A program made the position numbers and the translations under genes. 64,000 nucleotides of DNA, from the NCBI RefSeq assembly GCF_011045215.1, contig NZ_CP049201.1; one strand, written 5' to 3'. This document shows positions 32,561-61,393 of the stretch, in pieces (the stretch's first letter is position 1; each line of letters starts with the position of its first letter). The DNA comes from Escherichia coli (GTDB taxonomy: Bacteria; Pseudomonadota; Gammaproteobacteria; Enterobacterales; Enterobacteriaceae). The notes under the pieces were generated by a model. That model ran no database searches, was not told the origin of the DNA, and saw only the letters and a program-made list of their open reading frames with translations.

Positions 32561-32665
32561 TACTCATGCCGGATGCGGCATGAGTACCATATCCTTCCTG
32601 AAAATCGCGCAAATTCTATATATTGCAGAGATCATGTAGGCCTGATAAGCGAAGCGCATCAGGCT
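32561..32665. repeat. Palindromic hairpin plus REP unit downstream of glxK
   Basis: Near-perfect inverted repeat GTACTCATGCCGGATGCGGCATGAGTAC followed by a REP-like unit TGTAGGCCTGATAAGCGAAGCGCATCAGGC. Confidence 0.5.
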
Positions 32666-32682
32666 ATATTGCAAAAAAAGCC

Positions 32683-32709
32683 ACGGTATAAACCGTGGCA
32701 AAATCCAAC
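32683..32709 (-). terminator. Rho-independent terminator downstream of allE
   Basis: On the minus strand: GCCACGGTTTATACCGTGGC followed by TTTTTTT. Confidence 0.6.
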
Positions 32710-32741
32710 ATAGCTAAAAATAATCAGGCGAGTGGTATGAC

Positions 32742-54163: not shown

Positions 54164-54240
54164 GCGCCCTTAGCTCAGTTGGATAGAGCAACGACCTTCT
54201 AAGTCGTGGGCCGCAGGTTCGAATCCTGCAGGGCGCGCCA
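54164..54240 (+). tRNA. argU: tRNA-Arg (anticodon UCU), prophage integration target
   Basis: GCGCCCTTAGCTCAGTTGGATAGAGCAACGACCTTCTAAGTCGTGGGCCGCAGGTTCGAATCCTGCAGGGCGCGCCA; cloverleaf with anticodon loop CUUCUAA and encoded CCA. Confidence 0.93.
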
Positions 54241-55646: not shown

Positions 55647-58050
<2,404 letters not shown>

Positions 58051-58926: not shown

Positions 58927-59751
58927 TCAGGCGGTGAAAGTACCAATAAAGGTTTCTACTTTGCTGTCTTTGAATTTCTCAACAAGCAGATCACGAAATT
59001 CGTTAGCCATTTCTTCCTGCACCGCTTCCAGCTGAATAATGCGCAGAACCAGTACAGGACGATCGCCAGTGATAATGCTGAGGCGTAATTTAAACGGACG
59101 TTCTTTCAGACCTTCAAACGGAACGCATTTAAATTCAAATGCCACTGGCATAATGTCTTTGGTCTTCGCTTCGACAGACTCCATCAGGGAGCGTTTGCCG
59201 CTGAAGTCATTATCTTCAAAATCAGCGGTCTGGTTTGCTTCAATCGTGATTTTACGGACTGCCGCAGCCGCTTTTGTTGCTTGAATGGCGTCACCATTAG
59301 CATCAAAGCCCACAAGGTAGTCGGCCCAGTCTTCGATCCATTCTGCCAGTGACTTCTGGGAGTTACGCTCGCCGTTAACAGACAACAGAGTAGAGAACGG
59401 TGCTGTCTTTTTCAGTTTGAGAGTGGCAGTGTTATCTGCGTGACCTGGCTCATCAATAGTACCCAGGTTAAGCACACTGACGGCACGCATATTATCGGCA
59501 TCGATAAAGCAGCGGGTGCCTTCATCTGCAAGATCTTTAGAATAACGGGTAAAATCATCGATGCTGGCAGTGGAAAGTGCACCACGGAAACGGAAGCGAT
59601 TTAAATTAAATTTTTCCAGATCATGAATGCGGAAATTCTCAGGCAATGCCACAGCATCGGCACCAATCTTACTGATAATTTCATTAACACCCTGAGCAGA
59701 AATAAGGGCATGGATTTGATTAATTGCGGTTGCGTCTAAGTTCTGAGACAT
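58927..59751 (-). CDS. YfdQ-like phage protein (DUF2303-like), 274 aa
   Basis: Length and order match the CPS-53 YfdQ family as recalled; function unknown. Confidence 0.7.
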
Positions 59752-59816
59752 AATAAGTCCTCACTATATAAAGATATTCAGTGATGAGATAAATAATCAG
59801 TTTATTACGAACGATA

Positions 59817-60179
59817 TTAACGACCTGCTGCGCGGAGTTTTCCGTCAGGTTCACCGGCAAGAGTCAGTAATTGTCCCTGGTCTTCCTGCAGAATAGTCAG
59901 GCGACCACCGCGATTGACATACATCGGCGTTTCGGTGGTGTCTTCTTCGGAAATTTTCCCGCGGTTAGTTGGGCGAACATATGAGAGTTTGTGTTTGATT
60001 TTCACACGGTTCTCATCAAACGGTTCGATTTCCAGATTGAGTGAGACCTTCCCTTTGGTTTTCGTGTTCATCACACCGGAAGCGACCTCACTGAGAACTG
60101 CGCCGATTTTGGTTTCAAATACGCCGCCGTCCAGCTCCCCGATAAATGCCTGCACATCAGTACTGCGTTCGCTAGCCAT
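59817..60179 (-). CDS. YfdP-like phage protein, 120 aa
   Basis: Start MASERSTDVQ with SD AGGAG 6 nt upstream (the ORF track extends further 5' into GC-rich sequence, which I reject as coding). Confidence 0.65.
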   Translation of the reverse strand: MASERSTDVQAFIGELDGGVFETKIGAVLSEVASGVMNTKTKGKVSLNLEIEPFDENRVKIKHKLSYVRPTNRGKISEEDTTETPMYVNRGGRLTILQEDQGQLLTLAGEPDGKLRAAGR

Positions 60180-60649
60180 TTTGCTGCTCCTCATCATATC
60201 GACCCTGCAAGGTCGGTTGGTTTCTCCACAAAACAGAGAAGAACACCTGCGGTGGCAGCCGCCCGGATGGATTGGGTTATGAGCCCGTCGTCCGGTGATG
60301 CTCTTCTCTGTTTTGCAAAAAAGGACGGTACCAGCCGGAAGCAAGGGTACAAACTGGTACCGCCAGGACTACACACAGCATAAAGTTGTGGTGCCGGGTG
60401 CCTCCCGGTGCCTGGCGAAGGTTGCACACCAGGCGGGTGGGTATCCACAGAAGGTCGACTGTCAGCCTCAACCTTAACCCGCGTGCGCTGAGCCGCATTC
60501 ACCACAACGCTAAGGATTCTCTCTGGTTGAAAATACTTAGCTGTTATGTGCCTGCTTTTAGCCACATCAGGCGAGGTGGACCTGGTTATTCCCCAACAAC
60601 AAGGATTCGGTTAATCTGGATATCCCCAACAACAATAAGAGTATTCAAT

Positions 60650-61165
60650 GTGATCGCTGAATTAACGGCAGCAATGACGGCTATTCGTGAAACAGCCCAG
60701 ATTGCAAAACTAATGAACGAGGCAAAAACTCAAGCTGAAGTAAATGCGGCTATTGGTGAGCTAAACTCAAAGCTTGCGTCTATTCAGCGCGAATGCGTGT
60801 CTCTCGTTGAACTGGTGGGCTCTTATCAAGAAATAAATGCTTCTCTCAAAGCTAAAATTGCAGAATTCGAAAACTTTGAGGCTCAGACGGAAGGCTATAT
60901 CCTTAACCAACTTGAGTCGGGTACTTTTGTATACTCGAAGGAGGTAATCGTGAACGGTGGCAGCATAACCATGCATCTTTGCCCAAAATGTTTTGGACAA
61001 AAGATAGTATCGATACTTCAACCATTCCCGGTTAGCGAAGATGAGCTTTTTCATAAAAGCAGGTGCCTCCACTGTGAAAATAAGTTTCTGATGAATAAAA
61101 ATCCGGATTACGTATCGCCTCCATCCATTGAGGAGTTGTCCAGAAAACTTAACGGCAATCTGTAG
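60650..61165 (+). CDS. Hypothetical moron protein: N-terminal coiled coil plus C-terminal CxxC...CxxC zinc-ribbon-like motif (about 165-172 aa)
   Basis: Protein-like composition starts near GTG 60650 or ATG 60674; HLCPKC...CLHCENKF; own terminator downstream; convergent with cI and antisense to the early-left operon. Confidence 0.55.
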   Translation: MIAELTAAMTAIRETAQIAKLMNEAKTQAEVNAAIGELNSKLASIQRECVSLVELVGSYQEINASLKAKIAEFENFEAQTEGYILNQLESGTFVYSKEVIVNGGSITMHLCPKCFGQKIVSILQPFPVSEDELFHKSRCLHCENKFLMNKNPDYVSPPSIEELSRKLNGNL

Positions 61166-61203
61166 ATTACTACTGTTGTGGATATCCAGATTGTTAAAGA
61201 GCT

Positions 61204-61228
61204 AAGCGTCCTGTAGGGCGCTTTTTTG
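61204..61228 (+). terminator. Rho-independent terminator of the moron gene
   Basis: AGCGTCCTGTAGGGCGCT hairpin (7-bp stem with one G-U pair) followed by TTTTTTGTT. Confidence 0.6.
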
Positions 61229-61393
61229 TTGCTAACGAATCATCCTGGACTTCATATGCCCCAGGCGGCTACTTCCTGGGCGTCCTGCCTGTTCGTTTTT
61301 GACATTTACTGACTGCTTACGACACATGCACCGTGTTGCAACCAGATTTTGTTGTAATCCTGTAGTTGGTCTGGAACAAAAGATAAAATTAAA

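Follow-up and report, generated by a model that had tools for sequence, protein, structure and literature searches.

The window analysed here is a 64,000-nt stretch of the Escherichia coli contig NZ_CP049201.1, in which an SfV/KpLE1-like prophage without a recognisable N gene lies at a tRNA-Arg(UCU) site. The prophage genes are, in order, int ... yfdT, yfdR, yfdQ, yfdP, read leftward, followed by cI on the minus strand and by cro and ymfL, which are read rightward. Between yfdP and cI there is a sole plus-strand ORF, convergent with cI, which is the gene under study; it and its surroundings comprise the following features.

54164-54237: tRNA-Arg(UCU), the site of the SfV/KpLE1-like prophage
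59817-60179, minus strand: yfdP, left neighbour of the gene under study
60315-60538, minus strand: STnc100-like RNA, an Rfam match of 40.3 bits, below the gathering score of 47 (E 7.7e-7)
60650-61165, plus strand: Rip1-family gene, 171 aa (ORF list, homologue alignment, PGAP, dN/dS and fold)
61204-61230, plus strand: intrinsic terminator of that gene, hairpin 61204-61223 plus T-run (terminator scan and folding)
61394-61408 and 61416-61430: OL, two exact copies of the 15-mer operator TTGCGAnATATGCAA, overlapping a putative PL
61485-62177, minus strand: cI-type repressor (HTH and S24 peptidase), which sets the context of the gene
62275-62535, rightward: cro, then ymfL

The putative PL is read on the minus strand as TTGCAT-N17-TATCTT (hexamers identified by eye), and a related cI operator is found at 62198-62212, between cI and cro. 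The operator copies place OL/PL just to the right of the gene, so that the early-left transcript must cross it in antisense. An earlier note on this DNA, made from the letters alone, had described a stand-alone gene antisense to the early-left operon and convergent with cI; the ORF, the operators and the signature of purifying selection on the gene (dN/dS 0.13-0.19, from comparison with copies at about 94% DNA identity) confirm that description. A hairpin, CCCAGG-N9-CCTGGG at 61259-61281, stands in a conserved stretch that separates the terminator of the gene from PL and is found in SfV and SfIV as well. It lies where the early-left transcript begins, in a phage group with no recognisable N gene, and is a possible antitermination or processing signal. 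In its int-proximal part, the prophage harbours an IS21-family element (istA, 340 aa, and istB, 260 aa) at 56181-57982; the PhiR49_1 and OkiPb01694 prophages, collinear in other respects, do not have it.

Translation of the gene starts at GTG 60650, yielding 171 aa, and not at ATG 60674, the start that the earlier note had adopted. The peptide MIAEL(S/T)AAM encoded ahead of this ATG is kept in the alignment of 24 homologues, RefSeq/PGAP uses the same GTG (WP_000559922.1, 171 aa), and an SD-like TAAGAG sits 8 nt upstream of it. The composition of the gene (GC 0.39-0.44) is indeed unlike that of the segment to its left (60100-60600, 0.555-0.58), as had been remarked, and the claim that it has a terminator of its own is borne out by folding: the plus strand forms a hairpin of -12.1 kcal/mol followed by a U-run, whereas the minus strand reaches -7.5 kcal/mol and lacks a U-run. 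This strand specificity makes antisense read-through across the gene possible. In SfIV, the same terminator stands behind a different gene.

We then compared the product with known proteins. Its AF2 model (pLDDT 88) predicts helices at residues 2-24 and 28-79 and six beta strands at 84-150, that is, an N-terminal half that is helical (residues 2-79), followed at the C-terminal end by a beta domain holding the pairs C111-x2-C114 ... C139-x2-C142, in line with the helical N-terminus and two CxxC pairs recognised previously. All four cysteines are invariant among the homologues of the window gene, and so are the corresponding columns of the Rip1 alignment. Across 55 diverse family members, C111, C114, L123 (within SILQ) and C139 are invariant and C142 is kept in at least 90%. 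That alignment counts just 4 columns that are invariant and 5 that are nearly so, near-universal positions being only the four cysteines, L123 of SILQ, Y83, G91 and Y95, with the C-terminal domain outside the Cys/SILQ core variable.

Searches against the PDB converged on a single protein, Rip1 of phage HK446 (entry 9oox). With phmmer, the sole real match was chain 9oox_L (E 5.3e-7; residues 20-142 versus 38-159, including both CxxC pairs), and a profile built from 25 homologues extended this match to near full length (E 2.6e-17; 6-151 versus 16-160). Foldseek, run with the AF2 model, retrieved only 9oox_L and 9oox_M at E<1e-3, both with a probability of 1.00, target-normalised TM scores of 0.52-0.70 and an rmsd of 3.7-5.7 over 120 columns. 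Aligned by hhalign to an alignment of Rip1, HK620 HkaP and D3112 orf25, the family scored a probability of 99.7% (E 3e-25, 159 columns). BLASTP to the E. coli Rip1 gave 26% identity (E 9e-12), and in the reciprocal tblastn the Rip1 query recovered the window gene in phage PhiR49_1. As judged by sequence and model, the gene product is thus a distant relative of Rip1, which places it in an already described family.

Signature databases yielded far less. Neither Pfam, NCBIfam nor PADLOC returned a significant match to the protein; the PADLOC check suggested for the locus produced nothing above noise (best match in PADLOC-DB v2, REase_I, E 0.063, 8.6 bits); the database dates from 2023 and is older than Rip1, so this outcome is expected. 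Current defence-finder models miss this gene. PHROGs placed the protein in phrog_1244 only, a family without assigned function. The ECs_2282 family putative zinc-binding protein (NF047912) was considered and rejected, its 12.3 bits (E 0.12) falling under the curated cut-off of 37 bits.

The likeness to HK446 Rip1 extends from size (164 versus 171 aa) and layout (a helix and a four-Cys beta domain) to the shared core Y..G.xVY...LCxxC...KSILQ...CxxC and to the genomic setting, each gene standing alone in antisense within the PL operon, close to the repressor. There are also differences, which speak against a Rip1-type function: identity is only ~26%, the N-terminus is shorter and less hydrophobic, there is an additional C-terminal tail, and no consensus promoter precedes the gene. 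Specifically, the first ~10 residues of Rip1 and its G/A-rich hydrophobic stretch have no counterpart in the window protein (best 15-residue Kyte-Doolittle mean of the N-terminal segment 0.68, versus 1.49 in Rip1), which carries ~15 extra residues at the C-terminus. Furthermore, Rip1 lies between ral and N, whereas the window gene belongs to an SfV-like prophage devoid of N.

What has been reported on Rip1 offers a framework for function. According to its PDB record, 9oox (released 2026-02-04) is a cryo-EM structure of HK446 Rip1 (gp37) with the small terminase (TerS) of phage T6, in which 12 Rip1 copies sit on an 11-mer of TerS. [quoted passage not shown] We consider it probable that the window gene encodes a divergent, prophage-borne anti-phage protein of the Rip1 family, because it combines full-length sequence and fold homology, the four-Cys core, a shared leader and the position, typical of the family, of a single gene on the opposite strand next to the immunity region. 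Judged from homology and context, defence is most likely its function. The earlier guess at a defence gene is thus favoured by its only significant relative in sequence and structure, HK446 Rip1. The accompanying statement that no described defence family could be recognised no longer applies, given the Rip1 family of 9oox and the GenBank record of HK620 hkaP, which already read 'putative superinfection exclusion protein'.

By analogy with Rip1, the gene would be transcribed in the lysogen from its own weak promoter (~60589-60617) up to its own terminator, and the protein would stay inert until an infecting phage produces its small terminase as a ring, or some other ring-shaped structure. The protein would then oligomerise on this ring in a pore-like form and kill or disable the cell ahead of progeny packaging. 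Since the C-terminal domain is only ~26% identical to that of Rip1, this subfamily probably recognises other phages. The trigger itself could differ, the same fold and ring-templated killing being set off by a different phage ring (for example of portal, replicative helicase or recombinase) instead of the small terminase. We regard this as rather unlikely: although 'ring interacting' is not a terminase-specific name and conservation among the 55 diverse members is poor in the C-terminal domain beyond the Cys/SILQ core, Rip1, the sole characterised member, binds TerS according to the entry and the report, and a homologue in Pseudomonas Mu-like phages is found antisense just upstream of a gene (D3112 orf26) whose counterpart in phage Forsyth carries the annotation terminase large subunit, which points to packaging. 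A small-terminase sensor of the Rip1 type remains our preferred reading. A second, highly divergent sensor of this kind would provide a handle on ring recognition, on the phages that are excluded and on host range in phage therapy.

Other systems resemble this one in part. In the Avs1-3 and TerI systems, dealt with in the preprint cited above, defence is likewise set off by a conserved packaging protein, but Avs1-3, which are large STAND NTPases, recognise the large terminase subunit. Lambda RexAB and SieB, named as precedents in the earlier note, and P22 SieB are also protective genes expressed in the lysogen by or in the immunity/PL region; PADLOC and PHROG searches disclosed no sequence relationship between them and the window gene, and the two rex genes are co-transcribed with cI, whereas the gene studied here is single and convergent with cI.

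We next examined the region upstream of the gene. The earlier note had taken the gene and the GC-rich element to its left as a candidate conserved pair; what accompanies the gene, as judged from the sequences compared, is a ~100-bp leader (60550-60649). This leader is conserved before the enterobacterial members, including HK446 Rip1, even at 26% protein identity, and is built as follows.

60550-60579, strand not assigned: block A, interleaved inverted repeats GCCTG (60550-60554)/CAGGC (60568-60572) and CCAC (60562-60565)/GTGG (60576-60579)
60591-60602, plus strand: direct repeat R1 (CCCCAACAACAA), overlapping the -35 position
60612-60617, plus strand: putative -10 hexamer TAATCT, proposed from conservation only
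60624-60635, plus strand: direct repeat R2 (CCCCAACAACAA), covering roughly +1 to +12 of the transcript as predicted
60636-60641, plus strand: SD-like TAAGAG, 8 nt before GTG 60650

R1 and R2 are exact copies, 33 nt apart, that bracket the -10-like hexamer. The layout of HK446 is the same, with block A, two direct repeats around a -10 and a GAG-rich SD, the counterpart of TAAGAG being TAAGAGAG. The repeat itself differs between subfamilies (CCCCAACAACAA in the window, CCCCTACAG in HK446 and HK620, CCGCAACGTAA in L129, one of the other loci compared). Leader diversity was scored on 147 enterobacterial and viral loci; the 55-sequence alignment is too diverse for a locus search. The exact repeat was present in 33 of 36 distinct leaders, and all 33 have one TAnnnT between R1 and R2, ending 5-9 nt before R2. 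This hexamer is TATAAT in L079-81, L129, L130 and L132, and TAAAAT in HK446/HK620. Since a strict consensus sigma-70 scan gave no promoter before the gene, the putative -10 is put forward on its conservation. R1 and R2 are identical inside each locus and vary between subfamilies, so the two repeats evolve together; this pattern suggests a factor co-evolving with the gene and possibly autoregulation.

Block A precedes all enterobacterial family members, including HK446 Rip1 (L006, 2400-2431) and HK620 hkaP, and is also found in SfV (L003, 3370-3400). Two variants have both arms changed together (CCGGG/CCCGG in L118 and CCTCA/TGAGG in L129). Its topology is that of an H-type pseudoknot, more canonical on the minus strand, where the third loop is A-rich. 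A pseudoknot is a tentative reading suggested by these two co-changing variants, and palindromic protein-binding sites would produce the same pattern. Nested folding of the whole leader was no better than that of shuffled sequences on either strand (z +0.9 and +0.45).

These data bear on a further explanation, namely that the protein acts in the envelope as a superinfection exclusion factor blocking DNA entry, or is the toxin of an addiction module controlled by an antisense RNA. The wording of the hkaP record would favour the former, and a conserved leader with unexplained repeats could be an antisense-RNA target. We nonetheless judge both forms highly improbable. The window protein has neither a signal peptide nor a transmembrane segment (top 15-residue hydropathy mean 1.08), and the Rip1 structure is that of a cytoplasmic complex with TerS, as far as the PDB entry describes it. 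Moreover, inspection by eye with a type I toxin-antitoxin in mind revealed no conserved candidate for an antisense-sRNA promoter in the leader, which, as stated, folds no better than its shuffled versions.

Upstream of block A, each context has its own sequence, which makes this block the left edge of a variable slot. In SfIV, the leader and the terminator flank a different, 144-aa gene; the slot holds ORFs at 3469-3903 (plus strand) and 3875-4096 (minus strand) of locus L002, belonging to phrog_5286 and phrog_1744, both without assigned function. In SfV, block A is followed by an 81-aa plus-strand ORF (MTFDEKELDNAINK..., L003 3438-3683; phrog_3311, also without assigned function) that is unannotated in NC_003444, where a 'terminator' feature covers its start. 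As the SfIV and SfV slot genes have no PADLOC match and fall only into PHROGs without assigned function, the label of 'defence hotspot' is not established for the slot. A broader proposal, which we advance tentatively and regard as somewhat doubtful, is that the leader, with block A and the co-evolving repeats, is a dedicated control device for a dangerous ring-triggered killer: R1 and R2 would be bound by the protein itself or by a factor co-varying with it, antisense early or late transcription of the resident phage would act as the off-switch upon induction, the leader would be a platform for gene swaps such as those in SfIV and SfV, and the trigger would be unlike that of HK446 Rip1.

To place the gene in a wider frame, we surveyed its distribution and neighbourhoods. 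It is present in 649 of 5426 complete E. coli genomes (~12%), many of them STEC isolates, always as a RefSeq 'hypothetical', and can now be assigned, by the homology set out above, to a structurally characterised family with a probable role in defence. Homologues occur in Escherichia, Salmonella, Citrobacter, Cronobacter, Enterobacter, Trabulsiella, Arsenophonus and Symbiopectobacterium; at E<=1e-3 the family comprises 2297 clusters (50% identity), and the functional temperate phages HK446, HK620, D3112, DMS3, JBD30 and PhiR49_1 all carry a member.

In 9 of 9 informative contexts, the family gene is opposite in strand to both neighbours. Besides the window, these contexts are HK446, where Rip1 lies between an anti-restriction gene and N on the strand opposite to all its neighbours; HK620, where hkaP has the equivalent place, antisense in the PL operon; D3112; a Citrobacter locus (L008), with the homologue between xis and cI; Rac/Qin-like prophages (L012/L013), with the homologue between dicB or kilR and the repressor; L014; and two unrelated metagenomic contigs (L148 and L150), in which it is antisense to both neighbours. 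HkaP, also found in HK629/HK630, is 26% identical to Rip1, is among the sequences aligned for the hhalign comparison in which the window family scored 99.7%, and has the same leader as HK446; unlike Rip1, it is known only through its annotation. The orf25 product of the Pseudomonas Mu-like phages D3112, DMS3, JBD30 and MP38 is ~30% identical to Rip1 and its gene is similarly antisense to its neighbours, but its place is the late region, where orf26 follows immediately, and it has no leader of the enterobacterial type. The orf26 counterpart in phage Forsyth is annotated as terminase large subunit. Within D3112 (L005), orf25 spans 2962-3498 in antisense between orf24 and orf26, the former being DNA-binding and possibly a small terminase; the arrangement recurs in DMS3-, JBD30- and MP38-type phages, and would amount to a terminase sensor within the packaging module.

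The uniform orientation is relevant to whether the protein might serve the cycle of the resident phage, as a packaging modulator or a holin-like lysis or timing factor, and not defence. Homologues do reside in many functional temperate phages, and regulation of packaging by a protein that binds TerS is conceivable. Set against this, the opposite strand in 9/9 contexts and the gene's own terminator uncouple it from lytic expression, the gene is dispensable, its slot being filled by other genes in related phages, and the meeting report has Rip1 blocking other phages. A role in the resident cycle is accordingly very improbable. Under the preferred reading of a prophage-borne anti-phage protein, the 9/9 opposite-strand placement suggests that convergent operon transcription would silence the gene during lytic growth of the resident phage; in the window, where the gene lies antisense downstream of PL, early-left transcription of the resident prophage would suppress it upon induction. 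The shared leader and this opposite-strand rule are most likely the new parts of the present analysis, and they provide ideas on how a self-assembling killer could be silenced while its own prophage grows lytically.

The GC-rich segment between PL and yfdP turned out to be a different entity. An Rfam scan of the whole window yielded nothing for the gene or its leader, and within 59700-61500 the only match was the minus-strand STnc100-like RNA, which contains a perfect CACCGGGAGGCACCCGGCACCA core and has a terminal hairpin with a U-run of its own on the minus strand. STnc100 is a prophage sRNA family recently tied to PasD (bioRxiv 10.64898/2026.05.13.724894). The element is conserved at 95-97% in SfV, SfII, SfIV and mEp460, and at 78% in ST64B, all without the Rip1-like gene, and it is missing beside HK446 Rip1 and HK620 hkaP. 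The suggested pairing of gene and element was therefore rejected, as each occurs without the other; independent of the gene, the element belongs to the early-left operon. Several phage records place long spurious ORFs over it, for instance orf34/orf35 of SfIV. Elsewhere in the window, its chromosomal part shows gathering-level Rfam matches to the enterobacterial sRNAs ES036/CssrF and STnc480 at 32601-32735.
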